A program made the position numbers and the translations under genes. A DNA stretch of 63,401 nucleotides, filler included, from Pseudobdellovibrionaceae bacterium (GTDB lineage Bacteria; Bdellovibrionota; Bdellovibrionia; Bdellovibrionales; UBA1609), in assembly GCA_030591685.1 (NCBI GenBank). It is 11 parts of 11 records of this genome, joined end to end, with 100 filler letters (N's around TTAATTAATTAA, not from the genome) between each part and the next. Parts side by side here need not be neighbours in the genome. Positions count along the whole stretch, not along the records: positions 29,377 to 34,677 come from JAUVAX010000079.1; 10 more parts are not named here. The stretch is one strand, 5' to 3'. The notes beneath the pieces are model-generated. The model saw nothing but the letters and a program-made list of their open reading frames with translations, ran no database searches and was not told the DNA's origin. Positions 28,146 through 34,677 of this stretch are shown in pieces. Numbering within the stretch: position 1 is the stretch's first letter; every line of letters starts with the position of its first letter.

Positions 28146-28174
28146 TTGACAAGTACCCACATATGGGGTACTAT
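28146..28174 (+). promoter_or_regulatory. sigma-70 promoter with overlapping palindromic TA operator
   Basis: TTGACA-N17-TACTAT; inverted repeat AGTACCC-acatatg-GGGTACT. Confidence 0.8.
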
Positions 28175-28181
28175 GGATTTC

Positions 28182-28457
28182 ATGGACGTCGTTGATTTAA
28201 CACCTGTGAAGAAACAACTTAAGAAGCTCCCAATTGAGGCCATTAGGCGCCTTCAGCGGTGGGCTAAGTACGTAGAATTAAATGGACTCATGGAGACCAG
28301 GAAAACACCTGGATTTCACGATGAGCCACTAAAGGGCAAATGGAAAGGGTTTCGGTCTGTTCGTTTAGGTCTAAAATGGAGAGCTATCTATAAGCACAAA
28401 AAAGATGGCACTGTTAACATAGCAACTGTGGAGGAGGTAACACCTCATGAGTACTAA
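28182..28457 (+). CDS. RelE/HigB-superfamily mRNA interferase toxin
   Basis: HDEPLKGKWKGFRSVRL...WRAIY...EEVTPHEY; ATG about 7 nt after the -10 box. Confidence 0.85.
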   Translation: MDVVDLTPVKKQLKKLPIEAIRRLQRWAKYVELNGLMETRKTPGFHDEPLKGKWKGFRSVRLGLKWRAIYKHKKDGTVNIATVEEVTPHEY

Positions 28458-28755
28458 AAATAAAAAATATACGACTAAAAATTTAGAAAATGACTTTGGG
28501 CAACTCTCTTTTGCTGATCTAATCTTAATGCAAAGAGAAGATCTCGAACTCACTCAGGTTGAGATGGCCAAGAAACTAAAAATATCAAAGCAAAAGCTAT
28601 GCGATTTTGAAAAAGGAAGAAGAATACCTTCCGCAAAGCTTGCTGCTGGTTGGTCAAAAAAACTAAGACTTCCCCCTGAGGTTTGGATCCAGGCGGTTTT
28701 ACAAGATCAGCTCAAAAGAGACAATATTCACCTTAAAGTACACATAGCTTCTTAA
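28447..28755 (+). CDS. XRE-HTH antitoxin (HigA-like)
   Basis: LTQVEMAKKLKISKQKLCDFEKGRRIPS; overlaps the toxin gene. Confidence 0.85.
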   Translation: MSTKNKKYTTKNLENDFGQLSFADLILMQREDLELTQVEMAKKLKISKQKLCDFEKGRRIPSAKLAAGWSKKLRLPPEVWIQAVLQDQLKRDNIHLKVHIAS

Positions 28756-29276
28756 GCTACTTTTTTTCTCTTACAAGTTTTCGGTAACTGTATTGGCTTA
28801 CCTGTAACTTTATGTTTCCATACTGCCCCCGATAAATTAGAAGCAATTTTATGCATGTTTGTATAAAGCTGTCGTTCGGATATTTTAAAGTTGACCACTT
28901 CATTTCTCTTCAGCTGGCGGGTAGTGATCAGTTCAATACTTACTTCCTGCTCCATTACAAAGACCTTTAACTCGCCTTCAAGAGTGGTTCTAAATACCGC
29001 CATATAACCTGCCACAGAGCCTACTTGTGGGTTTACGATATACTTTTGACCTTGGTAACTAACGGTATGATCAGACCCAATAACTCGATCCTCTTCAATG
29101 CAAAGAATTTCATCAAGCTTTAACCATGGATCAAGGGGCTCATATGCTGAGATAGGGTCTAATGGAGCTACAATTTTTTCTTGATTCCAGTACTTAGTTA
29201 AGAATACCTCATTTAGGTATTTATTCGCATTTTCCATAGTATTGATTTTGTGATGCCTAAGTTCCGGAATTAATCG
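28752..29276 (-). mobile_element. ISNCY-like transposase C-terminal part (5' truncated by contig edge)
   Basis: Frame reads RLIPELRHHKINTMENANKYLNEVFL...EEDRVIGSDHTVSYQG. Confidence 0.7.
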
Positions 29277-29470
29277 NNNNNNNNNNNNNNNNNNNNNNNN
29301 NNNNNNNNNNNNNNNNNNNNTTAATTAATTAANNNNNNNNNNNNNNNNNNNNNNNNNNNNNNNNNNNNNNNNNNNNAAAATCATGCTCCTCATGTTTGAC
29401 TCCTGTTGTAATTTTAGTCTAACCTTATATTAAAGTAAAAGGTAAGATTAACAATTTTAAAAATAATATT

Positions 29471-30142
29471 ATGAATCTAGTCAAATTAGAATCAATAAAA
29501 AAAGCCTATAAAATGGGCGCGGGCAGTTTTCAGTGCCTTAATGGAGTGTCTTTGTCTTTTGAAAGGGGCGAATTCACAGCTATTGTTGGCCCTTCAGGTA
29601 GCGGAAAAACAACACTTTTAAACATTATTGGCTGCATTGATACTCCGACGACAGGGCAGGTTTATATTGAGGGCAGTAATGTTGCCAATTATAAATCTAA
29701 CCAACTTGCTGACCTAAGAGCTCAAACTCTTGGGTTTATTTTTCAAAGTTTCAATCTGCTACCCGCACTTACGTCTAAAGAAAATACAGAATACCCTCTG
29801 TCAAATATACCGAACATAAGTCGTGAGGAGCGCCAAAAACGCGTGGCACACTACATAGACCGTGTTGGGCTCAGCGCGCACGCCAATCATCGACCCTCTC
29901 AGCTGAGTGGTGGTCAAAAGCAAAGAGTGGCTATTGCAAGAGCATTGGTTTGTAAGCCAAAAATCATACTGGCCGATGAACCCACAGCTAACTTAGATCA
30001 CAAAACGGGCAGCGAGATATTAGAGCTTATGTCTGAAATAAATAAAGAAGAAGGTGTGACCTTTATTTTTTCAACACATGACCCAAAGGTTATGAAACTA
30101 GCCCGTCGTGAAATCCACATTGAAGATGGTCGAATTTTATAA
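29471..30142 (+). CDS. ABC transporter ATP-binding protein, LolD/MacB-like
   Basis: GPSGSGKT, LSGGQKQRVAIARAL, ADEPTANLD. Confidence 0.93.
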   Translation: MNLVKLESIKKAYKMGAGSFQCLNGVSLSFERGEFTAIVGPSGSGKTTLLNIIGCIDTPTTGQVYIEGSNVANYKSNQLADLRAQTLGFIFQSFNLLPALTSKENTEYPLSNIPNISREERQKRVAHYIDRVGLSAHANHRPSQLSGGQKQRVAIARALVCKPKIILADEPTANLDHKTGSEILELMSEINKEEGVTFIFSTHDPKVMKLARREIHIEDGRIL

Positions 30143-31731
30143 TGTCCCTTAAGGCTCTTTATTTGAGAGCACAAACTATTATAGCCCTATTGCTTACAGT
30201 TTCTTTTTTAAATGTGCCCATGGCGTACAGTAAGTCGGGTAAGGCCTATTATTTTTTAATCTCCCAACCTCAAAAAAGCCTCGTTAAAATTAGAAAAATC
30301 CGAAAGCAATTAAAATCAAAAGGTATTTCTAGTAAAATCATAAAACTAAGATCTCAGTATTATTTGAGATTTGCCTATTCAAAAAACTTGAAAAAAATGA
30401 AAAATGCCAAGCGGGCCTTTAAAAAAAAGAACTTAAAAGGTTTAAGAATATTAAAATTAAATAAAAAAATCTTGTCTAAAAAACTTAAACGTTCTGATTC
30501 CTCTCATTGGTTTTTAAAATCATTGCGCTCTTACCGGTGGACGGGGTCTTATCAGCTTGAAGTGCGTAAAATTACTTCTGACCCCTCACATATATCTACT
30601 TTAAAGCAAAGAGCTTTGCTGTCAGCTAATAGTTCATTTACCCCAGATATTCGGTGGAAAGCCTCGGCCCGACTTTTTTATGATCATGTGTTTGACATCA
30701 ACGCTGTCTACAGCTCAAGAGTAAAGAACTCTCAGAGTTATGAAATTGAGGCTGCAGAGACTTATCTAGATATTGGATTTGAAAATATTGATTTTCGCAT
30801 AGGTCGACAAAATATTGTATGGGGGGAGCTCATAGGTGCTTTTGTTGCTGACATTATCTCTGCACGGGACTTTAGGAGCTTTATTCTCCCAGACCTAGAG
30901 GTCCTTAGAATACCTCAGTGGTCTGTTTTAGCAGAGTCCAGTGTTGATAATTTTAGTTACCAACTCGTCTGGATCCCATTACCAAGCTTTGATAATTATG
31001 GCACTATAGGTAGTGATTTTCATTTTTTTAATGCATTTAATGTTCCGGATATCACTGTAAACGACCCCGAACGCCCTAGCATTAAGCTTGAAAATTCATC
31101 TTTTGGGGGTCGATTTTCATATCTACTTGCGGGTTGGGATGTTTCAGCTCTCATTTTTCAAGGCCTTAACCGTGAGCAAAGCCCTGAAAGAACCCTTCTC
31201 CCCGGCCCCTCAGTTGTAATCACCCCAAAACACTTTAAAATTACCCAGTATGGAGTGACCTTTTCAAAAGCATACCCTAGTACTGTTATTAAAGGGGAGG
31301 TTGTTTACACAAAAGACTCTCGAGTTATAACAACAGATATAGCTGACCCTGACGGCCTTATTAAGCAAGACAAACTCAGCCTTGGCCTGAGTTATGAGCC
31401 TCATCTGATCGATAATGGCCAATTTATGTTGCAGTATGTAGGCACACTACTGCCGGGAGCTCCCAATGAACTCTATGATGAAAAGCTTGAGAGCCGAGTG
31501 ACTCTATTAGTTAATAAAAGCTTTAAAAATAACAAGCATAAGCCTCAACTTATTATTATTTACGGAATTAACGACGGAGACTCTTTAATGAGGCTTAGTT
31601 ACAACTACTTAATATCACAAAATTGGAGCAGCACCTTTGGAGCTGATTTTTTTAACGGCCCTCCAGATTCTTTTTTAGGTCAGTTTGATGCAAAAGACCA
31701 ACTCCATTTTGAGTTAAAATATACGTTCTAG
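30142..31731 (+). CDS. outer-membrane beta-barrel (DUF1302-like) with a basic N-terminal domain
   Basis: ETYLD...RIGRQNIVWGE; ends GQF...ELKYTF; Lys/Arg-rich N-domain. Confidence 0.7.
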   Translation: MSLKALYLRAQTIIALLLTVSFLNVPMAYSKSGKAYYFLISQPQKSLVKIRKIRKQLKSKGISSKIIKLRSQYYLRFAYSKNLKKMKNAKRAFKKKNLKGLRILKLNKKILSKKLKRSDSSHWFLKSLRSYRWTGSYQLEVRKITSDPSHISTLKQRALLSANSSFTPDIRWKASARLFYDHVFDINAVYSSRVKNSQSYEIEAAETYLDIGFENIDFRIGRQNIVWGELIGAFVADIISARDFRSFILPDLEVLRIPQWSVLAESSVDNFSYQLVWIPLPSFDNYGTIGSDFHFFNAFNVPDITVNDPERPSIKLENSSFGGRFSYLLAGWDVSALIFQGLNREQSPERTLLPGPSVVITPKHFKITQYGVTFSKAYPSTVIKGEVVYTKDSRVITTDIADPDGLIKQDKLSLGLSYEPHLIDNGQFMLQYVGTLLPGAPNELYDEKLESRVTLLVNKSFKNNKHKPQLIIIYGINDGDSLMRLSYNYLISQNWSSTFGADFFNGPPDSFLGQFDAKDQLHFELKYTF

Positions 31732-31930
31732 CTCACTGTACAGGGCAAAAAAAGACTACCTTAAGCTTATCCTTCTGGCTCCGGTAATTTGTGACCTTTA
31801 CTGTCTCTCATTTTTTAATATAGACCTAAGTGAAGCTCTGACTTAAAAAACTTAAAGTTCTAATGAATACTTTTATAAAGCATTATAAATTATATGTTGA
31901 TTAGTTTCTACAGACGAAGAGTTGTAAACA

Positions 31931-33007
31931 GTGGATTTAGAAATTCTCAAAAAAATCATTCAAAAAGCCTCGTGGGCCCCTAGTGGGGACAACTGTCAGC
32001 CATGGCGCTTTAACTGGAACGGCAAACAACTTAAAATCTACCATATTGAAGTCCGAGCTCATCACTCCCTAAATTTTAATAACCAGGTCTCTCTTTTTAC
32101 GCTCGGTGGACTTATAGAGTACCTACATATTGCTAGCTTACATTATGGGTATGAGCCCACTTTTACCTTACCGGATCCAACGAATTTAGACCCTAACTTT
32201 CTCACACAGGTCCACTTTAAAAAAACAACACCTCAACCTCAGCCACTGTTTGAGGCCCTCAGCCTTCGTGCCACCGATCGACGCCCCTTTAAAAACACCC
32301 CCTTAGATGAAAAAATAGTCAATAACCTCCTCTCCGTGTCAAAGGATTTTAAACAGGCCAATGCTTATGTTTGTACTGCCCCAAGTGAGGAGCTTAAAAA
32401 ATACCTTGTCGCCTCTGAGGTGTTATTATTCAGCAACAAAGCCTTTCTTTTTGATATAATAAAATGGGTGAGGTTTAGAAACAAAGAGACTATAGACTCT
32501 AAAGATGGCTTGCCTTGGAGAAACCTGGGAGTGGGCCTCCGTGAGACTATTGTTCTATGGCTTATAAAAAGATATCCAAAATTATACGATCTATTTAAAC
32601 ACATGGGTATGTACAACCAAGTATCATTGGCCGCCCAAAAATTAGTAAAAAGTCATACAACTTTTATTTGCTTTACAGTGAAGTCAAATGAAAACCACCT
32701 CATTGAAAGCGGCCGGCTTGCTTTACGCTCTTGGCTGTTACTCGCAAAGCATGGGGTTTCAGCACAGCCTATGAGCTCTGGGGCGATGCTTCTTTATAAA
32801 CAAATTGTGTACCCTAAAGATAATTTTAGTACAAAAGCTATGACAACACACTTTAATAACGGGCGACTCATTTTACAAAGCTCCTTTGGCTTCTCTGAAA
32901 GTGAAAGGCCTATTTGGTTGTTAAGAGTTGGATTAAGTGATCCACTTAATAACAACATGAAAACCTATAGACGCTCTGTTGATCAGATATTTGAAGTAGA
33001 GGCATAA
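31931..33007 (+). CDS. nitroreductase-fold (Acg-like) FMN oxidoreductase
   Basis: APSGDNCQPWRF, RATDRRPF, SGR...W...GVSAQPM, LLRVG. Confidence 0.85.
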   Translation: MDLEILKKIIQKASWAPSGDNCQPWRFNWNGKQLKIYHIEVRAHHSLNFNNQVSLFTLGGLIEYLHIASLHYGYEPTFTLPDPTNLDPNFLTQVHFKKTTPQPQPLFEALSLRATDRRPFKNTPLDEKIVNNLLSVSKDFKQANAYVCTAPSEELKKYLVASEVLLFSNKAFLFDIIKWVRFRNKETIDSKDGLPWRNLGVGLRETIVLWLIKRYPKLYDLFKHMGMYNQVSLAAQKLVKSHTTFICFTVKSNENHLIESGRLALRSWLLLAKHGVSAQPMSSGAMLLYKQIVYPKDNFSTKAMTTHFNNGRLILQSSFGFSESERPIWLLRVGLSDPLNNNMKTYRRSVDQIFEVEA

Positions 33008-33032
33008 TTTATTTTTTAAAAAGGAGTTATTT

Positions 33033-33896
33033 ATGAATTTTGACTACAAAAAAGCTTTCTCTCGAAATTTAGGTTGGGTCACAGAGGCCGAACAGGAAAC
33101 ATTGAAAAATAAAACCGTTGCCATCGCTGGACTAGGAGGAGTAGGGGGGGCTCACTTATTAACTCTCACTCGACTAGGTATAGGAAACTTTAACCTTGCT
33201 GATTATGATCACTTTGAAGTCGAAAACTTTAATCGTCAAGCAGGGGCTATGATATCGACCCTAGAACAACCTAAATTAGAAACCATGGCTAATATGGCTT
33301 TAGACATTAACCCTCATTTGATTATTAATCATTTTAAAAAAGGAGTGAGTGAGGGCAACTTGCACTCCTTTTTTAAGGATACAGATGTTTATGTAGATAG
33401 CCTGGACTTTTTTTGCTTTCAAATCAGACAACAGGTCTTTCAATACCTGTATGAGAATAAAATTCCAGCTGTAACCGCTGCGCCACTGGGCCTCTCTGCA
33501 GCTAACCTTAATTTTTTGCCCGGGCATATGTCCTTTGAAGATTATTTTGGCCTTGATACTGTTGATACAGATTTTGACAAGGGGCTTTTGTTTTTATTAG
33601 GCCTATCTCCCTCAATGCCACACTCAAAATACCTTGTTGCCGAAGAGTATGTAGATTTCAAAAATAAGCGTGGACCCTCTACAGGCATTGCCTGTCAGCT
33701 CTGCAGTGGCACCATTGGCGCTGAGGTTTTAAAGTTATTACTCAAAAGGGGACGGGTATTAGCAGCACCTCATTCAATACAGATAGATGCTTATTTAAAT
33801 AAATCCGTGGCACGATGGGTACCTTTTGGGTACAAAAACCCCATTCAAAGGCTGAAGTTTTTTATCGCTAAAAGGAAATACTCTAGTCTGCTTTAA
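33033..33896 (+). CDS. ThiF family adenylyltransferase
   Basis: AFSRNLG, GLGGVGG, DYDHFEVENFNRQ, PST..ACQLC. Confidence 0.9.
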   Translation: MNFDYKKAFSRNLGWVTEAEQETLKNKTVAIAGLGGVGGAHLLTLTRLGIGNFNLADYDHFEVENFNRQAGAMISTLEQPKLETMANMALDINPHLIINHFKKGVSEGNLHSFFKDTDVYVDSLDFFCFQIRQQVFQYLYENKIPAVTAAPLGLSAANLNFLPGHMSFEDYFGLDTVDTDFDKGLLFLLGLSPSMPHSKYLVAEEYVDFKNKRGPSTGIACQLCSGTIGAEVLKLLLKRGRVLAAPHSIQIDAYLNKSVARWVPFGYKNPIQRLKFFIAKRKYSSLL

Positions 33897-33900
33897 TTCA

Positions 33901-34677
33901 TCAGCTGATTCGTCTTTGTATTTCGGCTCTATTTGAGTAAGCTGACTCAAGATATGCGATTAGCTTCTCCCAAACAGGGTCTGATTTTAAAATTTGACCT
34001 ACCATATAATTGCTACTCTGCCCCTTCAACGGATCAATTGTAATTTGTGACACTTCAAACTCTGAAACACATACGTCAACTTTATACTCATGTTCTAAAT
34101 CCGTTAGCACGTTAGTGTACAGGTAAACTCCATTTAAGGAGGCTCTTACCATGCGTCCTTCTGCAAAGCCGCCTTCGGGGAGGTGTATCCGTACCTTACA
34201 GTCCAGTTCGTGTCGGCGGTCTTTTCGTCGGCTTTTTTGCCTAAATGGAAGCACATTAAGATATTTTCCATAAGAAAATAAATTTAAAATCACATGAAGA
34301 CTGTTACCCGTTAAATTTTGAAATATTTGTGATTTTTCTACAAAAAAGTAATTAATTAAATCTGGGCACATCGTTAAATAAGATGTTGTTTGATAAGACC
34401 TCTCAGGCACTCTGTAGTTATCGTTTTGATAAAAAGTATGCCTTTTTGATTTTGAATAGTAGTACATAAATAAATTTTTATTTTCAGGCTTGTTGTTATA
34501 AACAATATGGTTATCATGATAGGCCTGTTCAAAGTTTAAAGTTAATATTTCTGCCGGAGCCCCGTTTGCAAACCCGTAGTTTTTTATAGACAAAGCTTTT
34601 GTTGGTTTAAATAAAAGTATTGAGCGATAAAAATCTACCATTTTAGGGTTCACGGCGATCACGACTTCAGAGACCTT
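33901..34677 (-). CDS. FeeM-like N-acyl amino acid synthase C-terminal part fused to a degenerate PilZ (5' truncated)
   Basis: Same IAVNP...NGAPA segment as 24695; RKDRR and RASLNG. Confidence 0.7.
   Translation of the reverse strand, partial: KVSEVVIAVNPKMVDFYRSILLFKPTKALSIKNYGFANGAPAEILTLNFEQAYHDNHIVYNNKPENKNLFMYYYSKSKRHTFYQNDNYRVPERSYQTTSYLTMCPDLINYFFVEKSQIFQNLTGNSLHVILNLFSYGKYLNVLPFRQKSRRKDRRHELDCKVRIHLPEGGFAEGRMVRASLNGVYLYTNVLTDLEHEYKVDVCVSEFEVSQITIDPLKGQSSNYMVGQILKSDPVWEKLIAYLESAYSNRAEIQRRIS

Follow-up and report, generated by a model that had tools for sequence, protein, structure and literature searches.

A predicted acyl-oxazolone-type locus with a PilZ-tailed N-acyl amino acid synthase in a member of the Bdellovibrionales: split tailoring enzymes, probable export and doubtful gating by cyclic di-GMP

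The DNA considered here (the window) is a 63,401-nucleotide stretch from the genome of a Pseudobdellovibrionaceae bacterium (GCA_030591685.1), in which contigs follow one another with N spacers in between, and the locus in question is one of these contigs in its entirety, the 5301-bp C17 (29377-34677). The genome itself amounts to 2.66 Mb in 98 contigs. On C17 the 3' part of a FeeM-type N-acyl amino acid synthase with a PilZ tail lies beside separate genes for a ThiF adenylyltransferase and an FDO-type nitroreductase, as well as beside genes of an export system, and this set very likely specifies an N-acyl amino acid to acyl-oxazolone type of pathway. The PilZ-tailed synthase, that is, would acylate an amino acid, the ThiF enzyme would cyclise the product with ATP, and the nitroreductase would then desaturate it, giving an acyl-oxazolone or instead its ring-opened dehydro form. 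By analogy with OxzAB, TyzACB, TrzAS and Nas354, these three reactions would start from an aromatic substrate, most likely tyrosine, and would depend on O2 and flavin mononucleotide (FMN).

The product would probably be exported by the adjacent cassette, i.e., ATP-binding cassette (ABC) ATPase, LolA-like protein and DUF1302 barrel. Cyclic di-GMP (c-di-GMP) likely would act weakly or not at all on the synthase of C17, termed here 'copy A', and more on its paralog on contig C16, termed 'copy B'. Taken whole, i.e., pathway, export and this uneven action of c-di-GMP, the explanation stands at about even chances. Most likely the regulatory and export setting of the locus is what is new here, and its chemistry probably is known already.

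The ThiF and nitroreductase enzymes

The ThiF protein retains the adenylation motifs GxGGxG, NRQ and DxLD, and it is 56% identical over 280 residues to a ThiF-nitroreductase fusion of Undibacterium pigrum (P0067; WP_110255068.1, 675 residues). From species and architecture we infer that this fusion is the U. pigrum OxzB that was tested, the oxzAB pair of that bacterium having directed oxazolone production in E. coli (bioRxiv 10.1101/2020.06.11.147165; this and the other papers cited below are drawn on for those parts of their text that were available). More generally, 1051 proteins of 504-2000 residues match the C17 ThiF at E <= 1e-40. Among the best 120 of these, 119 carry a nitroreductase Pfam domain and all 120 are matched in their C-terminal halves by the C17 nitroreductase, with a median identity of 24%.

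In a midpoint-rooted FastTree phylogeny built from 99 ThiF domains (P0067, each fourth one of the 120 fusions, and the domains from fetched loci), the C17 ThiF clusters with five relatives that likewise stand alone (support 0.91). It lies within a larger group of 52 (also 0.91) comprising 34 fused forms, that of U. pigrum included, and apart from MoeB/TcdA-like rows. Intermediate nodes are weak (0.10, 0.53), and no order of fusion versus fission is claimed for that reason.

The nitroreductase matches the C-halves of PRK14851, PRK07877 and PRK14852, and Acg (2YMV) is its nearest solved structure. Its FDO fold and its adjacency to ThiF fit FDO subgroup A, the profile scores not separating subgroup A from B. 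Synthase fragment, ThiF and nitroreductase furthermore map in that order onto the PRK14852 fusion (989 residues; 155-262, 313-588 and 612-749, respectively). The ThiF enzyme is predicted to be the cyclodehydratase, equivalent to TyzB or to the N-half of OxzB, and the nitroreductase the desaturase, equivalent to TyzC or to the C-half of OxzB, with the nitroreductase the weaker link of the assignment. The two-gene OxzB equivalent that the initial annotation had seen here is supported, as the ThiF groups with OxzB-type fusions and the nitroreductase matches their C-halves. Being two genes in reverse order, and not one polypeptide, the pair is not an OxzB proper; by analogy it would work like OxzB though it is not an OxzB.

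The synthase and its PilZ tail

Approximately 170 N-terminal residues of copy A, including the position of the catalytic Glu, lie beyond the end of the contig. Of those present, the first 48 residues give a match to the final third of FeeM (PF21926 positions 115-158, E 1.2e-4, under the cut-off), and full-length relatives score far above that cut-off (146.7 bits for P0001). Among 16 relatives of 391-448 residues the FeeM domain is found in all 16, with PilZ found as well in three, and a profile of these 16 has FeeM (2G0B) as its sole match among solved structures. FeeM also ranks first (TM 0.79 on target) for the structure that AlphaFold predicts of one full-length relative (pLDDT 93.8, pTM 0.92). 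A FeeM-type synthase, as originally suggested from a short segment, is therefore borne out through the Pfam scores of full-length relatives and through the match to 2G0B. The catalytic Glu, aligned to that of FeeM (E95 in FeeM, E103 in Nas354), is present in 88/88 full-length relatives, and the architecture of the family is that of a FeeM domain, a linker of ~80-90 residues, and a C-terminal PilZ fold.

An AlphaFold model of copy A (pLDDT 88.7) best matches PilZ domains with bound c-di-GMP, i.e., those of BcsA, MapZ, Alg44 and YcgR (E ~1e-4), and with this the PilZ-like fold first suspected for its tail is confirmed. The canonical c-di-GMP motifs of PilZ domains are described as RxxxR and D/N-x-S-x-x-G, and in MapZ it is the Asp of the second motif that contacts c-di-GMP. 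Across the 145 family members which span both motifs (from 151 aligned rows of 149 new proteins), the first Arg is kept in 99, the second Arg in 144, D/N in 102 with Glu in another 27, Ser in 133 and Gly in 141. It is this family-wide conservation of binding residues which suggests that the family binds c-di-GMP, and such binding is probable. The genome, for its part, holds six GGDEF matches and ten PilZ matches.

Copy B has both motifs in canonical form. Copy A has an intact first motif, and its second reads R-A-S-L-N-G, Arg replacing D/N. No relative among the 145 has Arg at that position (one has Lys), and in a 90-row alignment, partly overlapping and with some duplicates, conservation is similar and Arg again is seen in copy A only. 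Gating of copy A is weakened because its second motif reads as it does while that of its paralog is canonical, such that response of copy A to normal c-di-GMP levels is unlikely. The initial annotation had taken the synthase to be wired to c-di-GMP, and that idea suits the family and copy B better, their motifs being conserved, than it does copy A with Arg178 at the D/N position. Judged by these motif states, the family is likely to be gated and copy A only doubtfully so. Neither copy B nor the Arg in the second motif of copy A figures in the initial annotation.

Two other views of the tail retain the pathway. Copy A may itself be c-di-GMP-switched, with RxxxR and S-x-x-G sufficing and Arg178 making another contact, a reading to which we would give a minor though appreciable chance. 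One substituted residue indeed need not abolish c-di-GMP binding, the PilZ fold and RxxxR are intact, as are Ser and Gly of the second motif, the model of the full-length relative is a single compact unit (pTM 0.92), as might be the case for an allosteric enzyme, and trzAS adjoins c-di-GMP turnover genes (PMC12856293). Set against this are a charge reversal at a ligand-binding position that is seen in none of the 145 relatives, the finding by PF07238 (PilZ) of copy B but not of copy A, and the lack of any reported c-di-GMP effect on Nas343 or Nas354 in the available text of PMC4897644.

Alternatively, the tail may be structural or partner-binding throughout the family, synthesis then not being controlled by c-di-GMP. 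PilZ domains which do not bind are known, Nas354 yielded product in E. coli with no manipulation of c-di-GMP (PMC4897644), and the strict form of both motifs is found in just 57 of the 145 relatives, the first Arg being the less constant of the two. The positions which are best kept in the tail are nevertheless the ligand-binding ones, and this view is improbable. The preferred reading, i.e., a c-di-GMP-binding family within which copy A responds weakly or not at all, is retained here.

Copies A and B

The start of contig C16, on which copy B lies, is identical to copy A over 127 bases, followed by one mismatch and another 40 identical bases. That shared length of 127 recurs in five other pairs of contig ends in this assembly and presumably is the assembler's word length; C16 and C17 both break at a collapsed repeat. 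At the protein level identity is 55/56 residues initially, falling to 39/88 and 48/112 thereafter, i.e., ~43% beyond the shared part. Near-identical DNA at the catalytic end in combination with diverged linkers and tails could reflect conversion between the two genes or a swap of tails in the recent past. A contig of 361 nt from public run X1 covers the shared part of the synthase and extends it by 193 nt, of which 30 letters, read by hand, give ten in-frame codons that include the family's Met and Cys. Among public runs X1 was the one DNA run to contain the sequence, no RNA run was listed as containing it, and two RNA runs that were examined gave no usable coverage. X1 may be the source sample, however, and as such is not independent support.

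Copy A might be viewed as no separate working gene: it would be one of two alternative 3' ends of a single 5' half, a strain variant or a partial duplicate, with substrate supplied by copy B. Both contigs do break in one repeat, and neither the 5' half nor any evident second way into that repeat is found at a contig end of the assembly. Copy A has, even so, 258 open codons and no frame-shifting indel despite its ~43% identity to copy B in linker and tail; in X1 (possibly the source sample) the shared contig, at a depth of 8.05, is deeper than its two branches, at 5.8 and 4.9, and stays in frame as it goes on; and genomes of the order commonly have more than one synthase. This view is quite unlikely.

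Gene arrangement on the contig

The five genes of C17 are real and are as they were first described (Table 1). The stop of the ABC ATPase gene overlaps the start of the DUF1302 gene by one base, 199 bp then separate the latter from the nitroreductase gene, and a further 25 bp separate nitroreductase from ThiF. ThiF and copy A are convergent, their stop codons 4 bp apart (33897-33900). A scan for promoters and terminators gave 21 sites vs 13.8 +/- 4.0 in shuffles and 8 vs 3.7 +/- 1.9, with no site between the convergent ThiF and copy A genes, and was not used.

Placement in the Bdellovibrionales likewise holds at the level of order, as of the best 120 SecA homologs every one with a named lineage is from the Bdellovibrionales; a predatory lifestyle may be presumed for this organism. 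None of the five C17 genes is a PEP-CTERM or exosortase gene (the rest of the genome was not searched for these), and such genes adjoin the relatives at loci L009 and L010. Downstream of copy B there are no tailoring genes; a pair consisting of a HigB-like toxin and a helix-turn-helix (HTH) antitoxin (28146-28755) is found there, followed by an unassigned 161-residue frame (28752-29237) with which C16 ends. The DUF1302 protein has a basic, lysine-rich N-terminal domain (30229-30480) that is possibly SPOR-like (E 0.024, below cut-off; Atlas 0.82), which is a lead only.

Table 1. Positions of the features discussed, in window coordinates except where a locus is named (L numbers refer to fetched loci)
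Feature	Position	Strand	Basis
ABC ATPase, LolD/MacB type, 223 aa	29471-30142	+	PF00005 5.6e-37
DUF1302 outer-membrane barrel-like protein, 529 aa	30142-31731	+	PF06980 7.6e-15, over cut-off
Two-lobed FDO/Acg-type flavin nitroreductase, 358 aa	31931-33007	+	PF00881 24.8 bits, cut-off 23.5
Stand-alone ThiF adenylyltransferase, 287 aa	33033-33896	+	PF00899 4e-36; PRK08223 398.5 bits, cut-off 266
Copy A, 3' part (258 aa) of FeeM-type synthase-linker-PilZ	33901-34677	-	Frame open to contig end
PilZ motif 1 of copy A, RxxxR (R151-R155), intact	34213-34227	-	Sequence and alignments
PilZ motif 2 of copy A, Arg178 at D/N position	34129-34146	-	Sequence and alignments
168-nt segment common to copies A and B	34510-34677	-	One mismatch, after base 127
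Copy B, 5'-truncated synthase-PilZ paralog (contig C16)	24695-25498	+	PF07238 over cut-off
Possible first codons of a divergent gene	29377-29393	-	Short open frame running off C17; unproven
HTH-DUF4423 loci	L004:1262-2302 (C91); L040-L043, L045, L046, L049, L070, L071, L076, L089, L094, L097, L109; L115-L124

Comparison with described systems

A split cyclase and desaturase are found already in the N-acyl tyrazolone pathway of TyzA, TyzB and TyzC (PMC10404671). As in TyzACB, there are three separate genes here, an N-acyltransferase on the strand opposite to the ThiF and FDO pair, and a transporter nearby. Unlike in TyzACB, the acyltransferase is FeeM-type with linker and PilZ tail (Tyz being compared by its description), the nitroreductase precedes ThiF, and the exporter is of ABC/LolA-like/DUF1302 rather than MmpL type. 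With OxzA/OxzB and TrzA/TrzS the likeness is in the ThiF, given its identity to the U. pigrum fusion, and in an FDO fold for which Acg 2YMV is the nearest solved structure both with TrzS (PMC12856293) and with the C17 enzyme. OxzB and TrzS are fused, whereas the C17 enzymes are not, and OxzA and TrzA are acyl-CoA users with no PilZ tail described in the available accounts, whereas FeeM-type enzymes use acyl-ACP. Thousands of split-type ThiF neighbourhoods were noted in 2025 (PMC12856293).

The synthase-PilZ fusion too has precedent. Nas343 and Nas354 (Thies et al. 2016, PMC4897644) are N-acyltyrosine synthases of NAS-linker-PilZ form (NAS standing for N-acyl amino acid synthase) for which control by c-di-GMP was proposed, with NasP and cyclic AMP as analogy, and left untested there. 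They share with copy A's family the three-part architecture, the distance from catalytic Glu to start of PilZ being ~176 residues vs ~180 in P0001. They differ in having been judged to lie outside of a biosynthetic operon, whereas the fusion here adjoins cyclase, desaturase and exporter (a comparison of architecture). Clusters with NasY, ThiF and nitroreductase (for thalassotalic and kyonggic acids as well as stieleriacines; PMC12479983) have the same three types of gene, also separate, and at times several synthases per genome; their products are dehydrotyrosines rather than oxazolones, and PilZ is not mentioned in the available text of that report.

The novelty first seen in this locus was, as a consequence of TyzB/TyzC for the split form and of Nas343/Nas354 for the synthase-PilZ fusion and its proposed control, overstated. 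In the open-access literature that was searched, neither the combination of PilZ-tailed synthase, ThiF and nitroreductase nor its occurrence in Bdellovibrionota was found among the matches listed, and in two surveys of PilZ domains the terms acyl, GNAT and acetyltransf are absent (term search only).

Recurrence in related genomes

Of the 251 genomes of the order, 60 have synthase-PilZ matches, as many as seven in a single genome; in a general library the synthase profile finds 1528 clusters at E <= 1e-30, which may include tail-less synthases. Sixty high-scoring synthase loci from 37 genomes were sampled with ~5.5 kb per side. ThiF is present in 24 of the 60, a nitroreductase in eight, and both in five, two of the five with ThiF and nitroreductase fused. 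Approached from ThiF, searches yield further synthase-PilZ, ThiF and nitroreductase loci, i.e., L009 (Betaproteobacteria), L037, and L038 (its synthase split by a stop), along with a synthase-ThiF-exporter locus in Bdellovibrionaceae (L013). Co-occurrence of the three genes elsewhere, which was expected from the outset, is supported by these neighbourhoods. Seen from the nitroreductase, 14 of 43 matches have a synthase-PilZ gene no more than 5 kb away and 18 of 43 have one no more than 25 kb away, and a synthase-PilZ gene is present in 30/32 genomes with the nitroreductase vs 59/250 overall. One protein, P0166 (949 residues), combines methyltransferase, ThiF and synthase-family domains, which could be gene-calling read-through.

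A subfamily of Bdellovibrionota-type regulators with HTH and DUF4423 is found directly beside ThiF, synthase-PilZ or FDO genes (Table 1). The only such match in this genome is convergent with a second FDO nitroreductase, on contig C91, and among ten HTH-DUF4423 copies outside of the profile four adjoin a ThiF or FDO gene, two a GMC oxidoreductase gene, and one a methyltransferase gene. This regulator is a candidate receptor for the lipid. Among the listed matches from the open-access literature searched, one paper mentions DUF4423, a single time. The second nitroreductase was considered as marking a second cluster and was rejected as such, there being no ThiF homolog on C91. Eight kb from it is a gene (L004:11786-13654) for a secreted-looking protein of 622 residues with a weak C-terminal FeeM/GNAT match (E 5e-5).

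Export and glycosylation

C17 itself carries no permease. The right end of contig C61 (L054:7842-12038), however, carries a 5'-truncated LolA-like gene, two FtsX/MacB permease genes and a convergent gene for a GT1 glycosyltransferase. Among fetched loci the C17 ATPase (59%), the C17 barrel (36%) and the LolA-like protein of C61 (55%) are all matched best by L007, a Thiobacillus locus carrying genes for FeeM, ThiF and nitroreductase, and there the LolA-like gene is divergent from ATPase and barrel, which is the order expected of a C61-C17 join. From gene context, C61 probably joins the left end of C17, supplying the rest of the exporter as well as the GT1 gene, with the short frame at that end of C17 (Table 1) an unproven candidate for the start of the LolA-like gene.

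Export cassettes (LolA-like, FtsX permease, barrel or MMPL) are found at 13 of the 60 synthase loci, ten of these with ThiF, which supports the link to an exporter drawn in the initial annotation. Such neighbours make it somewhat more probable than the reverse that the exporter handles the product of the pathway. At L038, L049, L065, L006 and L016, ThiF or synthase genes are adjoined by a cassette of MMPL/RND, LolA-like and barrel genes in place of the ABC type.

All 24 other genomes which carry this GT1 also have a synthase-PilZ gene, and the two best GT1 matches adjoin synthase and ThiF (L085, L104). Glycosylation of the product, as judged from this context, is a tentative suggestion, with the balance leaning against it. 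Two relatives of the GT1 are fused, one to an AMP-binding (adenylation) domain and one to an NAD-dependent epimerase (L128:6891-9947, L129:6992-9187).

Weighing the pathway

A number of observations pull the other way. Nitroreductase and the C-half of the U. pigrum fusion are only 23% identical (294 residues), the nitroreductase scores 129 bits with the Acg/Rv3131 model vs 122 bits with PRK14851, leaving subgroups A and B unseparated, and FDO enzymes of subgroup B are not oxazolone enzymes (PMC10404671). Thalassotalea, Massilia and Stieleria with these types of genes give dehydrotyrosines, with no oxazolone seen in the available account (PMC12479983). Neither ThiF nor nitroreductase is present at 33 of the 60 synthase-PilZ loci, though 19 of the 60 are under 11 kb and cut by contig ends, and related genomes are not independent samples, such that the values given above are counts and not tests. 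The assembly lacks the catalytic half of both synthase copies, either of which may thus not be intact, that half having been sought by tblastn with full-length relatives, with an unfiltered N-terminal profile, and among open frames at contig ends. As to export, C61 and C17 do not overlap, the coverage by run X1 leaves out the left end of C17, and oxazolones of the Tyz and Trz systems are mainly in cell pellets rather than in supernatants, with N-acyl amino acids in the medium (PMC10404671, PMC12856293). As to glycosylation, among the next 20 of the 26 GT1 matches 15 have no pathway or export gene nearby and five do.

That the ThiF is instead a housekeeping enzyme (for thiamine, molybdopterin or tRNA ct6A) with unrelated neighbours is exceedingly improbable, as its best solved structures are indeed MoeB (E 2.5e-14) and TcdA (E 4e-9), over just ~130 residues, but its scores are far below the ThiF (86 vs 159), MoeB (73 vs 266) and TcdA (50 vs 304) cut-offs and far above that of PRK08223, no sulfur-carrier-sized partner was noted among the C17 genes, and it stands separate in the ThiF tree. 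The acylation, cyclisation and desaturation pathway is retained as the preferred account.

Implications

The role of acyl-oxazolones is described as a major unresolved question, a link with c-di-GMP being hinted at by gene position only (PMC12856293). A bolder view, speculative and rather unlikely as a whole, is that the Bdellovibrionales possess a c-di-GMP-controlled lipid signalling system, one with PilZ-tailed synthases, tailoring by ThiF, FDO and GT1 enzymes, export by ABC-LolA-like-DUF1302 or MMPL-LolA-like-barrel cassettes, and sensing by HTH-DUF4423 regulators. Under that view, gene conversion in this organism would have preserved the identity of a single catalytic domain, which bears a c-di-GMP-gated tail in copy B and an ungated tail in copy A, with copy A feeding the cluster.

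Here the oxazolone thread and the NAS-PilZ/c-di-GMP thread meet in one type of locus. This type is frequent in a predatory order, and single relatives (L037, L009) have the triad complete. The strongest point for testing is whether the PilZ tail gates the synthase, and for this the two copies offer a natural pair of tails, non-canonical in A and canonical in B, that represents a built-in control.

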